5,101 nt of DNA from a virus (Duplodnaviria > Heunggongvirae > Uroviricota > Caudoviricetes), in IMG/VR virus record IMGVR_UViG_2609459833_000010, positions 1 to 5,101 of that record. One strand, 5' to 3'. Of this stretch, positions 1 through 5,101 are shown piece by piece; position 1 is the first letter of the stretch; the number at the start of each line of letters is the position of its first letter. Made by a program: the position numbers and the translations under genes. The notes under the pieces were generated by a model. The model was not told where the DNA came from, ran no database searches, and saw nothing but the letters and a program-made list of their open reading frames with translations.

Positions 1-276
1 CAGGCTAACTGGCCGAATCTTGCCACGTTCTTCGCTTATCCAACGGACATCCGCAAAGTGATCTATACGACGAATGCCATCGAGTCGCTAAACAGCGTGA
101 TCCGCCATGCGATCAAAAAGCGTAAAGTGTTCCCGACAGACGACTCGGTGAAAAAAGTGGTGTGGCTGGCAATCCAGGCGGCTTCACAGAAATGGACGAT
201 GCCACTGCGGGACTGGCGTATGGCAATGAGCCGCTTTATTATCGAGTTCGGTGACCGCCTGGACGGCCACTTCTGA
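1..276 (+). CDS. IS256-family (Mutator-type) transposase, C-terminal fragment; the 5' end lies upstream of the window
   Basis: Frame 1 is open from base 1 to the stop at 274-276. The translation (QANWPNLATFFAYPTDIRKVIYTTNAIESLNSVIRHAIKKRKVFPTDDSVKK...KWTMPLRDWRMAMSRFIIEFGDRLDGHF) carries the C-terminal motifs typical of IS256-family transposases (YTTNxIESLN, KWTMP, F..RL). Recognised from memory, not searched. Confidence 0.8.
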   Translation, partial: QANWPNLATFFAYPTDIRKVIYTTNAIESLNSVIRHAIKKRKVFPTDDSVKKVVWLAIQAASQKWTMPLRDWRMAMSRFIIEFGDRLDGHF

Positions 277-290
277 GAAAAGGTATTTAC
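1..290 (+). mobile_element. Right-hand end of an IS256-family insertion sequence; the exact terminus is not determined
   Basis: Inferred from the transposase 3' end at 1-276. The terminal inverted repeat could not be located from sequence alone. The element must end within a few tens of bp of the stop and may overlap the 3' end of the convergent gene at 287-523. Confidence 0.45.
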
Positions 291-523
291 ACAGAATCCT
301 GAACAGGCTCTCCCCATTGTTTGTTCTTAAGTTCGATCTCCTCCTGGCAACTTGCACAAGTCCGACAACCCTGAACAGCCAGGCGTCTTCGCTCATCTAT
401 CGGATCGCCACACTCACAACAATGAGTTGCGGATACAGTCTGGTAGTTCAGACGACGCATTTTTATTGCTGTATTGCGCTGTAATTCTTCGATTTCTGAT
501 GCTGAATCAATGATGTCTGCCAT
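287..523 (-). CDS. TraR/DksA-family C4 zinc-finger protein (phage TraR-like, of the lambda Orf73 class)
   Basis: 78-aa ORF with an ATG start. It contains C-x2-C-x17-C-x2-C (CCEC...GDPIDERRRLAVQGCRT...CASC), the zinc-finger signature of TraR/DksA proteins, and its size matches F-plasmid TraR (73 aa). Confidence 0.8.
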   Translation of the reverse strand: MADIIDSASEIEELQRNTAIKMRRLNYQTVSATHCCECGDPIDERRRLAVQGCRTCASCQEEIELKNKQWGEPVQDSV

Positions 524-576
524 CTTTCATTAATCCCTGAATTGTTGGTTAATACGCTTGAGGGTAAATGCGAATA

Positions 577-600
577 ATAAAAAAGGAGCCTGTAGCTCCC
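577..600 (-). terminator. Weak candidate intrinsic terminator for the minus strand
   Basis: On the minus strand, a GGAGC / 5-nt loop / GCTCC hairpin (586-600) is followed by TTTTTTATT (577-585), about 20 nt after the stop of the 622-903 ORF. The stem is only 5 bp. Confidence 0.3.
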
Positions 601-621
601 TGATGATTTTGCTTTTCATGT

Positions 622-903
622 TCATCGTTCCTTAAAGACGCCGTTCAACATGCCGATCGCCAGGCTTAAATGAGTCGGTGTGAATCCCATCAGCGTTACC
701 GTTTCGCGGTGCTTCTTTAGTACGCTACGGCAAATGTCATCGACGTTTTTATCCGGAAACTGCTGTCTGGCTTTTTTGATTTCAGAATTAGCCTGACGGG
801 CAATGCTGCGAAGGGCGTTTTCTTGCTGAGGAGTCACTGAACAAGCCCCATGCCGGCAAGCATAAGCACACAGAATATGAAGCCCGCTGCCAGAAAAATG
901 CAT
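622..903 (-). CDS. Hypothetical small phage protein; the real start may be the internal GTG at 835-837, giving 71 aa
   Basis: 93-aa ORF from an ATG. The C-terminal 70 residues look protein-like (SEIKKARQQFPDKNVDDICRSVLKKHRETVTLMGF...), while the N-terminal 22 are Cys/His/Gly-rich and overlap another ORF. A GTG at 835-837 overlaps the stop of the 834-917 ORF. Confidence 0.45.
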   Translation of the reverse strand: MHFSGSGLHILCAYACRHGACSVTPQQENALRSIARQANSEIKKARQQFPDKNVDDICRSVLKKHRETVTLMGFTPTHLSLAIGMLNGVFKER

Positions 904-917
904 TCAGTGGTTGTCAT
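834..917 (-). CDS. Putative 27-aa hydrophobic single-helix peptide (MTTTECIFLAAGFIFCVLMLAGMGLVQ)
   Basis: Not in the supplied ORF track because it is short. Its ATG (915-917) overlaps the TGA stop of the upstream 914-1105 ORF as ATGA, suggesting translational coupling, and a purine-rich GAGAGAG lies 6 nt upstream. The product is almost entirely a transmembrane-like segment. Confidence 0.3.
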   Translation of the reverse strand: MTTTECIFLAAGFIFCVLMLAGMGLVQ

Positions 918-1105
918 ACCTGGTCTCTCTCATCTGCTTCTGCTTTCGCCACCATCATTTCCAGCTTTTGTGAAAGGGATGTGGCTAACGTATGAAATTC
1001 TTCGTCTGTTTCTACTGGTATTGGCACAAACCTGACTCTAATTTGAGCAAGGCTATGTGCCATCTCAATACTCGTTCTTAACTCAACAGGAGATGCTTTG
1101 TGCAT
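914..1105 (-). CDS. Small lambda early-left protein (orf60a/orf63 class), function unknown
   Basis: 63-aa ORF. It sits in the same position relative to exo as the small non-essential ORFs in phage lambda and overlaps the next ORF by 28 nt, as those do. Confidence 0.6.
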   Translation of the reverse strand: MHKASPVELRTSIEMAHSLAQIRVRFVPIPVETDEEFHTLATSLSQKLEMMVAKAEADERDQV

Positions 1106-1266
1106 ACCGCCTCCCGTTTATTATTTATCTTCTCAGCCAGCCGCTGTGCTTTCAGTGGATTTCTGATAACAGAAAGGCCGGGAAATACCCAGCCTCGCTT
1201 TGTAACGGAGTAGACGAAAATGATCGCGCCTACCCGGATATTATCGTGAGGATGCGTCATCGCCAT
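1078..1266 (-). CDS. Small phage protein immediately downstream of exo, function unknown
   Basis: 62-aa ORF ([62 protein letters not shown]). Its start overlaps the exo stop by 10 nt, so it belongs to the same leftward operon. Confidence 0.5.
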
Positions 1267-1937
1267 TGCTCCCCAAATACAAAACCAATTTCAGCCAGTG
1301 CCTCGTCCATTTTTTCGATGAACTCCGGCACCATCTCGTCAAAACTCGCCATGTACTTTTCATTCCGCTCAATCACGACATAATGCAGGCCTTCACGCTT
1401 CATGCGCGGGTCATAGTTGGCAAAGTACCAGGCATCTTTTCGCGTCACCCACATGCTGTACTGCACCTGGGCCATGTAAGCCGATTTTATTGCCTCGAAA
1501 CCACCGAGCCGGAATTTCATGAAATCCCGGGAGGTAAACGGGCATTTCAGTTCAAGGCCGTTGCCGTCACTGCATAAACCATCGGGAGAGCAGGCGGTGC
1601 GCATACTTTCGTCGCGATAGATGATCGGGGATTCAGTAACATTCACGCCGGAAGTGAATTCAAACAGGGTTCTGGCGTCGTTCTCGTACTGTTTTCCCCA
1701 GGCCAGCGCCTTAGCATTAACTTCCGGAGCCACACCGGTGCAAACCTCAGCCAGCAGGGTGTGGAAGTAGGACATTTTCATGTCAGGCCACTTCTTTCCT
1801 GAGCGGGGCTTTGCTATCACGTTGTGAACTTCTGAAGCGGTGATGACGCCGAGCCGTAATTTGTGCCATGCATCATCCCCCTGTTCGACAGCTCTCACGT
1901 CGATCCCGGTACGCTGCAGGATAATGTCCGGTGTCAT
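1257..1937 (-). CDS. exo: Lambda exonuclease (Red alpha), 5'-3' dsDNA exonuclease
   Basis: 226 aa, the length of lambda Exo. The sequence ([43 protein letters not shown]...) is recognised as essentially lambda Exo. Its start overlaps the bet stop by 4 nt, as in lambda. Confidence 0.96.
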
Positions 1938-2719
1938 GCTGCCTCCTTCTGCTCAGTGGCTTTCTGTTTCAGGAATCCAAGAGCTTTCACTGCTTCGGCC
2001 TGTGTCAGTTCTGACGATGCGCGAATGTCGCGGCGAAATATCTGGGAACAGAGCGGCAATAAGTCGTCATCCCATGTTTTATCCAGGGCGATCAGCAGAG
2101 TGTTAATCTCCTGCATGGTTTCATCGTTAACCGGAGTGATGTCGCGTTCCGGCTGACGTTCTGCAGTGTTAGCAGTATTTTCGACAATGCGCTCGGCTTC
2201 ATCCTTGTCATAGATACCAGCAAATCCGAAGGCCAGACGGGCACACTGAATCATGGCTTTATGCCGTAACATCCGTTTGGGATGCGACTGCCACGGTCCG
2301 GTGATTTCTCTGCCTTCGCGGGTTTTGAATGGTTCGCGGCGGCATTCATCCATCCACTCGGTAACGCAGATCGGATGATTACGGTCCTTGCGGTAAATCC
2401 GGCATGTACAGGATTCATTGTCCTGCTCAAAGTCCATGCCATCAAACTGCTGGTTTTCATTGATGATGCGGGACCAGCCATCAACGCCCACCACCGGAAC
2501 GATGCCGTTCTGCTTATCAGGGAAGGCGTAAATTTCTTTCGTCCACGGATTAAGGCCGTACTGGTTGGCGACGATCAACAATGCGATGAACTGCGCATCG
2601 CTGGCATCACCTTTAAATGCCGTCTGGCGAAGAGTGGTGATCAGTTCCTGTGGGTCGACAGAATCCATGCCGACACGTTCAGCCAGCTTCCCAGCCAGCG
2701 TTGCGAGTGCTGTACTCAT
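1934..2719 (-). CDS. bet: Lambda Beta (Red beta) single-strand annealing protein
   Basis: 261 aa, the length of lambda Bet. The sequence ([66 protein letters not shown]...) is recognised as essentially lambda Bet. A GAGG Shine-Dalgarno lies about 10 nt upstream. Confidence 0.96.
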
Positions 2720-2724
2720 CCGTT

Positions 2725-3021
2725 TTATACCTCTGAATCAATATCAACCTGATGGTGAGCAATGGTTTCAACCATGTACCGGATGTGTTCTGCCATGCGC
2801 TCCTGAAACTCAACATCGTCATCAAATGCACGGGTAATGGCTTTTTTGCTGGCCCCGTGGCGTTGCAAATGATCGATGCAGAGTGATTCAAACAGGTGCT
2901 GTGGAAGACCTTTTTCCATGTCGTCTGCCAGTTCTGCCTCTTTCTCTTCACGGGCAATCTGCTGGTAGTGACGCGCCCAGCTCTGAGCCTCAAGACGATC
3001 CTGAATGTAATAAGCGTTCAT
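2725..3021 (-). CDS. gam: Host-nuclease (RecBCD) inhibitor Gam, short form
   Basis: 98-aa ORF ([60 protein letters not shown]...[10 protein letters not shown]) recognised as lambda GamS. An AGGAG Shine-Dalgarno lies 7 nt upstream of the ATG. An in-frame stop at 3076-3078 with no start codon in between rules out the longer lambda-type form here. Confidence 0.94.
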
Positions 3022-3096
3022 GGCTGAACTCCTGAAAATGGCTGTGAAAATATCGCCCGCGAAATGCCAGGCTGATTAGGAAAACAGGAAAGGGGA

Positions 3097-3507
3097 TTAG
3101 TGATTCAGGCCGTTGCCTCGTCCGTCGAGAAAAACTTCCACGAGCAAATCACGGGTATAAGTGCGCTCGATGCCGCGATGCAGATATAGCCGTCCGCGTA
3201 AATTAGCTGATGCTGTCCAGGTACCATCTTTGTGTTTGACCAGCATTCCTGGCATGACCGCACCGCGATTAACGGTCTGCGTTCCGTAATGTTGATGAAC
3301 CATAAAAACTCCTGCCCGTAAGCTGGGCTGCTGAACATATAAAGACTTCTGCGCGTATTCAGGCGGTGGATGGCCGCCGGTTGTCATAACTAAGCCGCCT
3401 CGTTGAAGCGACTGAGGTATGAAATGTTGAGTTAATTTCAGCTGGTCACACCGACGTTCACGCGTCCGCTTCACCCCTCGCACTTCCCGGAGCCTGCTGA
3501 AATTCAA
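3097..3507 (-). CDS. Hypothetical Arg-rich protein or gene remnant; no ATG at the head of the ORF
   Basis: 136-codon open frame, and the plus strand here is closed in all frames. The frame opens right after a stop at 3517-3519 and its first start-like codon is TTG. The first ATG is codon 41, preceded by GAGG about 10 nt upstream, which would give 96 aa. No family recognised. Confidence 0.3.
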   Translation of the reverse strand: MNFSRLREVRGVKRTRERRCDQLKLTQHFIPQSLQRGGLVMTTGGHPPPEYAQKSLYVQQPSLRAGVFMVHQHYGTQTVNRGAVMPGMLVKHKDGTWTASANLRGRLYLHRGIERTYTRDLLVEVFLDGRGNGLNH

Positions 3508-3588
3508 GCTACGGATCTAAGCGGTCATCGCAACGGTGAATCAGGTGGTTGCCGTATCGTTGTGTTGTTGCGATATGATGATAATAGC

Positions 3589-3625
3589 TATTGCTATTGG
3601 TGATATCAATACTTATTGCTATTGG
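3589..3625. repeat. Two perfect copies of a 12-bp direct repeat, TATTGCTATTGG, 25 bp apart in AT-rich intergenic DNA
   Basis: Read directly: 3589-3600 and 3614-3625. Each copy is itself a GCTATT-type tandem, and both lie in the AT-rich spacer between the terminator at 3747-3774 and the ORF at 3097-3507. Confidence 0.5.
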
Positions 3626-3746
3626 CTGATGTGTTTTGATATTAAATGTTTGATAGCAAAAAGAATTAATTTTGTGACTTGCATCGCATAGCGATAACTG
3701 AAGCAGGGGCATGGTGGTTTTTTGAACGGTGTGTGATGAGGGGAGG

Positions 3747-3774
3747 CAAAAGAAAACCCGGCACGACGGCCGGG
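3747..3774 (-). terminator. Intrinsic (rho-independent) terminator downstream of the membrane-protein gene
   Basis: On the minus strand, a GC-rich hairpin CCCGGC-cgtcgt-GCCGGG (3757-3774) is followed by TTTTCTTTTG (3747-3756), starting 9 nt after the TGA stop at 3783-3785. Confidence 0.55.
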
Positions 3775-3782
3775 GAGGGGGG

Positions 3783-4289
3783 TCATTTTAATCTATCAAG
3801 GAGTGACTCTCTTTCCTTCTTCTCTGATTCTCTTCGGTTTAATAACGCTTTAAACTCTTGAAGCTCAACCATTATTTTATGAACGAATACACTGGTATAG
3901 AGAGAAATAAAGAGTAATCCACCTGAAATTTTTAAGACCCTGAAGAGTAGGGCTTGATCATTTGTGCTTGCTATTAACCCCAAGATTACAAACAAAGTTG
4001 AAAATACATAGAAAGCTAATAATAAAACCAATTTCAGTCTCTTGGATTTGACTATTGGCACTAATCGCCTAACCTCACTAGGGGTTAAAGACGAGTGGTC
4101 ATTGGCCTCATTTGCCTTAAAAATGGCTTGTATACAATATGATAATGGCAATTGCATGAGTCCAACCACAGCCCACGGAGCTGTTAGGACAACACCCGGT
4201 GTAATATAGCCCAATGCTGACTTGAACAAAAAGTAACCAGCAACATAGAAGACCAACATACCAATAAGGTGGATGATGTTCGATTTCAT
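3783..4289 (-). CDS. Predicted integral membrane protein (about 4 transmembrane helices, charged C-terminal tail), function unknown
   Basis: 168-aa ORF with an ATG start and a canonical AGGAGG Shine-Dalgarno 5 nt upstream. Hydrophobic stretches sit at about residues 5-22, 30-57, 85-107 and 112-136, followed by a Lys/Glu/Arg-rich tail (LQEFKALLNRRESEKKERESLLDRLK). The gene is AT-rich and starts 21 nt after the upstream gene's stop. Confidence 0.75.
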   Translation of the reverse strand: MKSNIIHLIGMLVFYVAGYFLFKSALGYITPGVVLTAPWAVVGLMQLPLSYCIQAIFKANEANDHSSLTPSEVRRLVPIVKSKRLKLVLLLAFYVFSTLFVILGLIASTNDQALLFRVLKISGGLLFISLYTSVFVHKIMVELQEFKALLNRRESEKKERESLLDRLK

Positions 4290-4310
4290 TATCGCCCTCC
4301 TTTTGGTAGG

Positions 4311-4781
4311 TTATTTTGCAACCAATTCTCCGGCATCAAGTTTTGAGAACAGCCACTTATGCATTTTTAAGAATAAATCATTTTCATCAATAATGCCATT
4401 GTTATGTTCAACGCTAATTTTTCCGGATAATTTTATCTCTTTTCCCGTTATTTCCCCACCGCCTTGAAGTTTGATGCTAATATCATCCTCATCTAGATGT
4501 CGTAGTGAGGTAGCAATACTGTCTATAACAGCTTGACCGCTATCATTTGTTTTTCTGAAGTATGTAATCTCGAGGCTTACTTGTAAATTGGCCTCATCTA
4601 ATGAATCTTTAATGTTTATATCATTTGCCCAGTTATCGCCAAAAAATGCTTTTAGTAGCGCACCTCCTTTCCCTATTGGGCGGTATTTTATTGTCTTCAC
4701 CGAACCATTTGAAAAGGAGGGTGTTTGGTTCTCTGAATTTTTAACTTCTGAAGTAATGGGTAATCTGATCTTACCCAGCAA
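4311..4781 (-). CDS. Hypothetical soluble protein, first gene of the two-gene cassette; 5' end apparently truncated by the IS3 insertion
   Basis: 156-codon frame ending in TAA at 4311-4313. The head of the frame (4766-4781) is IS3 inverted-repeat sequence and the first start-like codon is a TTG inside IS3. The native portion (4765 and below) has no ATG until near the C-terminus, and its only GTG (codon 28) has no Shine-Dalgarno. No family recognised. Confidence 0.55.
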   Translation of the reverse strand: MLGKIRLPITSEVKNSENQTPSFSNGSVKTIKYRPIGKGGALLKAFFGDNWANDINIKDSLDEANLQVSLEITYFRKTNDSGQAVIDSIATSLRHLDEDDISIKLQGGGEITGKEIKLSGKISVEHNNGIIDENDLFLKMHKWLFSKLDAGELVAK

Positions 4782-5101
4782 TAGTGGACACGCGGCTAAG
4801 TGAGTAAACTCTCAGTCAGAGGTGACTCACATGACAAAAACAGTATCAACCAGTAAAAAACCCCGTAAACAGCATTCGCCTGAATTTCGCAGTGAAGCCC
4901 TGAAGCTTGCTGAACGCATCGGTGTTACTGCCGCAGCCCGTGAACTCAGCCTGTATGAATCACAACTCTACAACTGGCGCAGTAAACAGCAAAATCAGCA
5001 GACGTCTTCTGAACGTGAACTGGAGATGTCTACCGAGATTGCACGTCTCAAACGCCAGCTGGCAGAACGGGATGAAGAGCTGGCTATCCTCCAAAAGGCC
5101 G
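4766..5101 (+). mobile_element. IS3 (IS3 family), left end and start of orfA; continues beyond the window
   Basis: The left inverted repeat begins at 4766 (TGATCTTACCCAGCAATAGTGGACACGCGGCTAAGTGAG...), followed by the orfA start at 4831. Recognised as the E. coli IS3 left end. Confidence 0.93.
4831..5101 (+). CDS. insE: IS3 OrfA (transposase N-terminal helix-turn-helix / leucine-zipper protein), 3' end outside the window
   Basis: Translation from the ATG at 4831 (MTKTVSTSKKPRKQHSPEFRSEALKLAERIGVTAAARELSLYESQLYNWRSKQQNQQTSSERELEMSTEIARLKRQLAERDEELAILQKA) is recognised as IS3 OrfA (InsE). It is absent from the ORF track only because no stop falls inside the window. Confidence 0.93.
   Translation, partial: MTKTVSTSKKPRKQHSPEFRSEALKLAERIGVTAAARELSLYESQLYNWRSKQQNQQTSSERELEMSTEIARLKRQLAERDEELAILQKA

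Follow-up and report, generated by a model that had tools for sequence, protein, structure and literature searches.

We analyzed a 5,101-nt stretch of a Caudoviricetes virus (positions 1–5,101 of IMG/VR record IMGVR_UViG_2609459833_000010; hereafter the window), which represents the early-left arm of a lambdoid prophage, its genes being encoded on the minus strand. Between the kil-gam-bet-exo region and a copy of the insertion sequence (IS) IS3 lies a two-gene locus, called A-B here: gene A encodes a soluble protein and gene B a small protein with four predicted transmembrane (TM) helices. We consider it likely that A-B is a RexAB-type two-component prophage module, which is present here as a broken copy. 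An initial annotation, made from the sequence of the window, had described a two-gene cassette. The cassette is not intact: the upstream open reading frame (ORF) represents only codons 191–340 of a gene for a 340-aa protein, cut by IS3 at 4765/4766. The window therefore holds one intact gene (B) and the 3' 44% of its partner A.

The junction was located by Megablast against 5,426 complete Escherichia coli genomes: similarity to IS-free relatives stops at window position 4765 and is followed by the IS3 terminal repeat. The 156-aa ORF upstream of B (4311–4781, minus strand) is a mechanical ORF and not a whole gene. Its residues 7–156 are residues 191–340 of the intact protein; the six codons that precede these, among them the TTG start at 4781, come from the terminal repeat, and positions 4766–4781 belong to IS3. 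Intact A is found in E. coli CB6837 (locus L001; 340 aa, WP_000654525.1), and window positions 3600–4765 (1,166 bp) show 100% DNA identity to this copy, which indicates that the IS3 insertion is recent. The insertion also separates B from the promoters on the cI side. A second, independent IS3 insertion in A was seen in E. coli T309.Ta3 (locus L002, position 7258), 153 bp away and in the same orientation, and B is intact in both cases. This double hit could reflect selection against the sensor gene, a preference of IS3 for AT-rich targets, or chance.

The remaining local features agree largely with the initial annotation. The minus-strand ORF of 168 aa is present with its ATG start, and its product is identical to CB6837 WP_021544413.1. 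The gap between the two ORFs is indeed 21 nt (stop codon at 4313–4311, ATG at 4289), and the AGGAGG motif reported in it exists, although its spacer measures 6 nt instead of 5 nt. The higher AT content of both genes was likewise confirmed, with 37.3% GC for positions 3783–4765 vs 51.8% for exo-bet-gam and 49.7% for the IS3 part. Downstream of B, a hairpin (CCCGGC-CGTCGT-GCCGGG, 3774–3757) with six G-C pairs starts 8 nt past the stop codon and is followed by TTTTCTTTTG. A terminator at this point, described before as strong, is borne out by the near-identical prophage of strain LF82, where the transcript level drops from 578 to 5 (background) across it. However, the energy of the hairpin (-12.1 kcal/mol) is not exceptional compared with shuffled sequences (z = -0.9).

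Table 1 Features of the window, listed by position (coordinates refer to the 5,101-nt stretch).
Feature	Position	Strand	Basis or remark
IS256-family transposase, 3' fragment	58–276	+	NCBIfam NF033543, E 3e-10
TraR/DksA gene	287–523	-	
ZapA-like ORF and DUF1382 ORF	between TraR/DksA gene and exo		
exo	1257–1937	-	
bet	1934–2719	-	
gam	2725–3021	-	
kil-type FtsZ inhibitor	3097–3303	-	
Promoter-like site TTGATA-17-TATTAT	3609–3581	-	Overlaps both operator-like repeats; promoter scan score 10/12
Two 17-bp operator-like repeats	3582–3598, 3607–3623	- (region 3581–3623)	Repeat family D1
Intrinsic-terminator-like hairpin and T tract closing the module	3747–3774	-	Position of lambda tIMM
Gene B, RexB-like, 168 aa, pI (isoelectric point) 9.8	3783–4289	-	Intact ORF, ATG start
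Intergenic spacer, 21 nt	4290–4310	-	AGGAGG at 4301–4296, then 6 nt (GCGATA), then ATG of B at 4289; read from sequence
Gene A, 3' fragment (codons 191–340 and stop codon)	4311–4765	-	5' 190 codons absent from window
IS3 end, terminal repeat TGATCTTACCCAGCAATAGTGGACAC... and start of first transposase ORF (ATG at 4831)	4766–5101	+	Megablast to annotated IS3 in E. coli T309.Ta3; junction sequence

The undisturbed module can be seen in CB6837 and in phage Perceval of LF82, a Crohn's-disease isolate, with protein identities for Perceval of 99.7% (A) and 99.4% (B, one substitution). The Perceval pair carries the locus tags PERCE_43/42. In both loci the order is a cI-like S24/HTH repressor, A, B, the terminator and, after an intergenic stretch of about 480 bp with the putative operators and pL, the genes kil, gam, bet and exo; on the opposite side of the repressor lie a cro-like gene, a cII/YdaT-like gene, O and P. 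The lambda layout, which we re-read from NC_001416, is cI-rexA-rexB-OL/pL and matches these intact loci.

To describe the pairing of the two genes, we surveyed 80 viral contigs encoding a homologue of A (36–100% identity). In 77 of them, a same-strand ORF of 160–207 aa with three to four hydrophobic peaks lies directly downstream of A, starting -80 to +131 nt from the A stop codon; the other three are contig ends. Accordingly, the pair co-occurs in 77/77 usable viral loci, in prophage context as anticipated in the initial annotation, and in 7 further genomes and phages. With the B protein of the window as query, phmmer detected 58/59 distinct B sequences. Adjacent, co-oriented and co-inherited genes for a soluble RexA-like and a four-TM protein are also what characterizes RexAB-type systems. 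Chance ORFs were ruled out, since both proteins belong to large conserved families.

B has a predicted four-helix architecture like that of RexB. Its hydropathy profile shows four peaks (residues 4–22, 29–47, 88–106 and 118–136), and the AlphaFold model (predicted local distance difference test, pLDDT, 85.7; predicted template modelling score, pTM, 0.72) consists of four long helices (2–26, 37–62, 70–107 and 112–167), in line with the four-helix membrane protein proposed before. The last helix runs on into a charged C-terminal tail. Lysine and arginine are concentrated in three places, namely the N-terminus, the central loop (six residues) and the tail (eight residues); loops 1 and 3 contain none. 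On the positive-inside rule alone, the N-terminus, the central loop and the C-terminal tail would be cytoplasmic. B would then be, like RexB, a small inner-membrane protein with four predicted TM helices and both termini in the cytoplasm. Among the 59 distinct B sequences, the most conserved segment is the central loop with the motif S-L-x3-E-x-R-R-L at 67–76. In the equivalent loop of the RexB-like protein gp31 of Mycobacterium phage Sbash, the exchanges R70A and D73A abolish defence (PMC6426596).

A Foldseek search of BFVD with the B model returned in first place the IS1-truncated homologue of phage SfIV. The second and best named match was an uncharacterised Sbash protein of 165 aa (prob 0.99, E 0.06, TM 0.48), and gp31 has the same length. 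At the sequence level, B falls into PHROG 16807, a group of unknown function; NCBIfam and PDB-sequence searches gave no match, and BLASTP of B against lambda RexB gave an E value of 2.5. Models of Kiwa (four-TM KwaA and DUF4868 protein KwaB), SieB and CBASS-type 4TM effectors had no PADLOC or Pfam match to the E. coli A and B proteins. The Acinetobacter B protein showed a sub-threshold match to the '4TM effector' model (E 0.0014, 36 residues).

For A and for 46 members of its family, searches of Pfam, PADLOC 2.0, NCBIfam and PDB sequences gave no match, and the only PHROG found for A was phrog_3482, again of unknown function. The initial annotation had recognised neither protein, and neither showed homology to housekeeping, structural or lysis families in the Pfam, PADLOC, PHROGs and NCBIfam scans. 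A word-indexed search with A retrieved 137 clusters from Enterobacterales, Pseudomonas, Halomonas, Methylobacter, Aeromonas and others, all of them named 'hypothetical' except for one with the automatic label 'peroxiredoxin family protein'. When 1.84 billion representatives were searched exhaustively with a profile, 785 A-family clusters (50% identity) were obtained at E <= 1e-3. The N-terminus of the family carries a nearly invariant K-x-[IV]-H-Y-K motif. With the RexA profile (Pfam PF15969, PADLOC PDLC02339), no match at E <= 1 was obtained for intact A, the 46 members of its family or the homologues from Acinetobacter, Stx2a and SfIV, whereas lambda RexA as positive control scores 1e-97 and 9e-110 in the same tools.

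The predicted structure nevertheless connects A with RexA. An AlphaFold model based on 46 homologues (mean pLDDT 69) is confident at residues 1–80, 115–188 and 285–340. In a Foldseek search of the PDB, its top match was lambda RexA (8twq_B, chain B of 8TWQ; E 3.2e-4, prob 1.0), followed by CHL4 (7.0), RdgC (6.6), CENP-N (6.4) and IML3 (6.3), with the Corynebacterium epimerase 3OH8 lower in the list. RdgC, CHL4, IML3 and the same Corynebacterium epimerase are also the structural relatives of RexA itself (PMC11077077). The model proceeds from a beta-rich N-terminal domain through a middle alpha/beta part to a long C-terminal helix, an order that fits the split globular domain of RexA, which is interrupted by a dimerisation domain. 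A is thus predicted to have a RexA/RdgC-type fold, composed of a globular domain that is split and of a dimerisation domain. RdgC (PF04381), which stands next to cI in some lambdoid phages, differs in that A has no RdgC Pfam match, and to our knowledge RdgC genes have not been described with an obligatory four-TM partner. In a Methylobacter prophage (locus L004, 9263–10174), an RdgC-family gene lies ~2.7 kb downstream of the A-B pair in the same prophage arm, so that two members of one fold superfamily co-occur there.

Expression was assessed using published RNA-seq data of LF82 for the Perceval locus (L092, 4001–5551; PMC9928086, S1 Table), i.e. for an intact relative of the broken copy in the window. 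In overnight lysogeny broth (LB), cI, A and B reached 78, 27 and 578 fragments per kilobase per million (fpkm), with kil, gam, cII and O at the background of 5. The cI-A-B block is therefore what the repressed prophage expresses, as is the case for RexAB-type systems. The authors of the Perceval study class B among the morons (PMC9928086). A lysis or holin pair was ruled out, the genes being expressed in the lysogen and located next to the repressor.

The transcript of B always exceeds that of A, about 20-fold in overnight LB and about 1.6-fold at 6 h in culture medium. The A mRNA rises from log2 4.2–5.2 in overnight LB to 9.6 at 6 h in cell-culture medium and stands at 6.4–6.9 inside macrophages; across the same conditions, cI remains at log2 6.2–8.1 and B at 8.4–10.4. 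As B always exceeds A, and A varies while cI hardly moves, separate promoters for A and B are indicated, and cI, A and B do not form a simple single transcript. In lambda, rexB has a separate promoter, pLIT, and the membrane gene is likewise in excess.

These expression levels bear on two further explanations. The first is superinfection exclusion at the envelope, in which B together with A would block phage DNA entry in the manner of P22 SieA or T4 Imm and leave the host unharmed. B would be suited to this as a small inner-membrane protein and the top expressed gene of the repressed prophage (578 vs 78 fpkm for cI). However, neither SieB nor another Sie family was matched, and a strictly co-inherited cytoplasmic partner of 340 aa with a DNA-binding fold is not expected for an entry block. 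Moreover, those characterised systems that are closest in structure work after entry (PMC6426596, PMC12894663), and we consider exclusion at the envelope quite improbable. The second explanation is a toxin–antitoxin or addiction module serving to stabilise the prophage, in which B would be a membrane toxin restrained by A, as might be suggested by a tightly spaced, AT-rich, mobile two-gene cassette with a small membrane protein. Against this, IS3 disrupted A twice independently, in the window and 153 bp away in T309.Ta3, with B left intact and identical or nearly so, and the loss of an antitoxin should not be tolerated. In addition, a ~20-fold excess of B mRNA over A mRNA in overnight LB does not kill the host, and there was no match to a known toxin or antitoxin. 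An addiction role is accordingly very improbable, and a toxin–antitoxin pair with A as the antitoxin was rejected, A having been lost twice while B stayed intact.

The genomic location of the pair varies between phages. All copies in E. coli and ~34 out of 76 viral loci have it directly downstream of an S24/cI-type repressor; ~23/80 viral loci have it on the opposite strand, in the interval that separates the Q antiterminator from the lysis or stx region, and other copies are located at the ends of P2-like prophages. The cassette thus uses at least three prophage cargo sites, and this mobility points to a self-contained accessory cassette, not to a part of the genetic switch. Within E. coli, the pair is rare, being present in 43/5,426 complete genomes, always with at least 99% identity. 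It was also found in Photorhabdus, Methylobacter, Pseudomonas lundensis and Chromohalobacter as well as in an Acinetobacter baumannii phage, Shigella phage SfIV and Stx2a-converting phages; overall, the family spans Enterobacterales, Pseudomonadales, Oceanospirillales, Methylococcales, Aeromonas and Acinetobacter.

The same data allow us to weigh a modulation of the lysis–lysogeny decision, in which A would act on the immunity region of its own prophage, with B as an accessory and no defence involved. Lambda RexA binds DNA and biases the cI/Cro switch to lytic growth independently of RexB (PMC11077077). The predicted RexA fold of A, the frequent position directly behind the repressor and the ~40-fold variation of A mRNA across growth conditions, independently of cI, would suit such a function. 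However, the copies between Q and lysis/stx on the opposite strand, to which those of SfIV and the Stx2a phage 1447 have to be added, and the copies at P2-like prophage ends, far from any switch, do not fit. A role at the DNA level also does not need strict pairing with a membrane protein, and in lambda the switch and exclusion functions are not mutually exclusive. We therefore regard modulation of the switch as an unlikely sole function of A-B.

Some individual loci deserve mention. In SfIV (locus L093, 3501–3827) and in the Stx2a phage 1447 (locus L094, 3492–5055), the pair is placed on the opposite strand, with Q on one side and the lysis or stx genes on the other, and B of SfIV is cut by IS1, which is a second case of the module being damaged by an IS. 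In Acinetobacter phage phi1_092021 (locus L091, 2983–3984), a 32%-identical homologue of A follows the repressor and is itself followed by a membrane ORF of 167 aa. This homologue is labelled 'DefenseFinder protein' in GenBank, with no system named, and has no PADLOC 2.0 match. A newer or structure-based annotation pipeline may already link it to a defence protein.

How does A-B relate to known Rex-type systems? With lambda RexA/RexB it shares the slot and orientation (cI, soluble gene, four-TM gene, terminator, OL/pL), the four hydrophobic helices of the membrane protein, an AT content that is high relative to the pair's own phage, and expression in the lysogen with the membrane gene in excess. 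However, sequence similarity is undetectable in either protein. A is longer than RexA (340 vs 279 aa), mildly acidic (pI 6.4 vs 8.6) and has a variable, low-confidence insert at ~190–253; B is longer than RexB (168 vs 144 aa) and has a charged C-terminal helix of 30 residues. The A-B family, unlike lambda RexAB, also occupies sites that are not adjacent to cI.

A second reference is RexABpp of the Pseudomonas putida prophage P1 (PP_5643/PP_5644), which consists of a RexA-fold protein of ~37 kDa and a four-TM protein (Rosendahl et al. 2026, PMC12894663). This system was shown experimentally to defend against phage, with both genes needed and the membrane protein as the growth-arresting effector. 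In the same study, PP_5643 was linked to RexA only by HHpred (98% probability), no homologue was found for PP_5644, and BLAST misses the Rex link. RexABpp resembles A-B in its position downstream of a cI-like repressor and in that BLAST does not recognise Rex. However, the primer-deduced termini (MHRTATFV..., ...VYNKQSRLMV) lack the K-x-[IV]-H-Y-K motif of the A family, a comparison that covers the terminal peptides alone; PP_5643 reaches RexA by HHpred, whereas the A-family profile reaches nothing; and RexBpp has at least 181 aa. The published primer sequence for PP_5643/PP_5644 had no match in the viral and genome contigs searched. Judging from the terminal peptides and the HHpred contrast, the A-B family is probably distinct from the RexABpp sequence family.

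Similarly, Sbash gp30/gp31 and CarolAnn gp44/gp43 each combine a soluble protein of ~370 aa with a four-TM protein of ~165 aa, with expression of both pairs in the lysogen. The membrane protein has a conserved central cytoplasmic loop, which in Sbash is needed for defence (PMC6426596). They differ from A-B in belonging to another host phylum and in showing no significant sequence similarity, and the Sbash genes are not adjacent to the repressor.

Altogether, the best reading of A-B is that of a sequence-orphan RexAB-type abortive-infection module, inactivated in the window, for which we infer a defence activity. By analogy with lambda RexAB, Sbash gp30/gp31 and RexABpp, A (~340 aa, cytoplasmic, predicted RexA/RdgC fold) would serve as a dimeric DNA-binding sensor that an infecting phage switches on, either by a replication or recombination intermediate or by a phage protein. 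Activated A might then trigger the inner-membrane protein B with its four predicted TM helices, and B would compromise membrane integrity or potential, resulting in energy loss, growth arrest and an aborted infection. A prophage accessory or defence module resembling lambda RexA/RexB had already been suggested in the initial annotation, and the cI-adjacent position, the four-helix B and the structural match to Sbash support it.

Several results weigh against this reading. Pfam, PADLOC and hhalign (up to an effective number of sequences, Neff, of 6) revealed no sequence-level homology of A or B to RexA, RexB or Sbash gp30/gp31. For B, the RexB profile (Pfam PF15968, PADLOC PDLC02340) gave no match, and hhalign of the 59-sequence B alignment yielded a probability of 0.7% against a 19-sequence RexB alignment and nothing against gp31. 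For A, the family profiles (Neff 2.8 and 6.0, the larger one with 144 sequences) reached probabilities of <=1% against lambda RexA, a 24-sequence RexA alignment and Sbash gp30; the sole co-linear sub-threshold alignments (A residues ~213–337, E 0.05–0.09) were not counted as evidence. Confidence in the A model is moderate overall, with a pLDDT below 50 for residues 190–253, and the 165 residues of A aligned by Foldseek may correspond to the globular domain alone. The Sbash match of B is weak (E = 0.06) and suggestive only, because four-helix bundles match one another easily and the top 50 BFVD entries include none named RexB. Promoter-like sites inside A upstream of B occur at chance level (5 found, 4.2 expected), and for this reason no promoter was assigned to a specific site. 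Finally, the literature searched held no phage-challenge, toxicity or DNA-binding data for the A-B family.

The copy in the window is very probably non-functional, with A cut by IS3: residues 1–190, and with them the whole confident N-terminal domain, are missing and the cI-side promoters are displaced, so that the sensor is lost. The intact B may still be transcribed; judged by the Rex analogy, it should by itself be inert as a defence. As a recently IS3-inactivated remnant, the window module carries a more modest message than its family. On balance, we lean towards seeing this family as a large, unnamed, sequence-orphan lineage of RexAB-type abortive-infection systems. The term 'undescribed' used in the initial annotation holds for the sequence family, for which no published description was found in the literature searched, but not for the kind of system; the kind is known, whereas the sequence family is missed by Pfam, NCBIfam and PADLOC 2.0.

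Among abortive-infection systems, lambda RexAB has been known for longest, and there is still no settled account of its trigger and gating. Should the A-B family indeed defend against phage, Gram-negative prophages, among them Stx2a and Shigella serotype-converting phages, would carry Rex-type immunity far more often than is catalogued, and the natural variants of the family could help to show how a RexA-fold sensor gates a four-helix membrane effector. A 2026 paper counted only five Rex-like systems as described; the ~800 clusters at 50% identity suggest that Rex-type modules are a broad class under-counted in defence catalogues. Carriers of medical relevance comprise LF82 Perceval, Stx2a phages, Shigella SfIV and Acinetobacter baumannii phages, and the host range in phage therapy could be affected.

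Beyond the module itself, the operator-like repeat of family D1 occurs a third time in CB6837, between its cI-like gene and its cro-like gene (L001, 10610–10626). By consensus match only, the two repeats of the window and the promoter-like site that overlaps them are a putative OL/pL for kil-gam-bet-exo. In CB6837, a near-perfect palindrome of 44 bp (L001, 9785–9828), whose 22-nt arms are 86% complementary and adjoin without a spacer, is located between the repressor gene and A. It belongs to the cI-A intergenic region of the intact loci, which the window lacks, and might serve to regulate the condition-dependent transcription of A.

In the remaining part of the arm, the prophage segment is flanked on both sides by IS elements. 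At window positions 1–310, the IS256-family fragment adjoins the prophage, and similarity to related prophages begins only at 311, which marks the last codons of the TraR/DksA gene as non-native. As a whole, the prophage looks like a remnant in which the IS256-family fragment takes the place of the sequence left of 311. No N-like antiterminator ORF is present between the pL-like promoter and kil (3304–3581), and an Rfam scan of the window found no RNA family. The kil gene is annotated with 68 aa in RefSeq genomes vs 139 aa in phage Perceval. Positions 738–1093 are another variable cargo site of the same arm: these ~360 bp with the DUF1382 gene stand where CB6837 (L001, 2918–5494) has an insert of ~2.6 kb between the ZapA-like gene and exo, which encodes a hypothetical protein, an S-adenosylmethionine (SAM) methyltransferase, a PAPS-reductase family protein and DUF1317.

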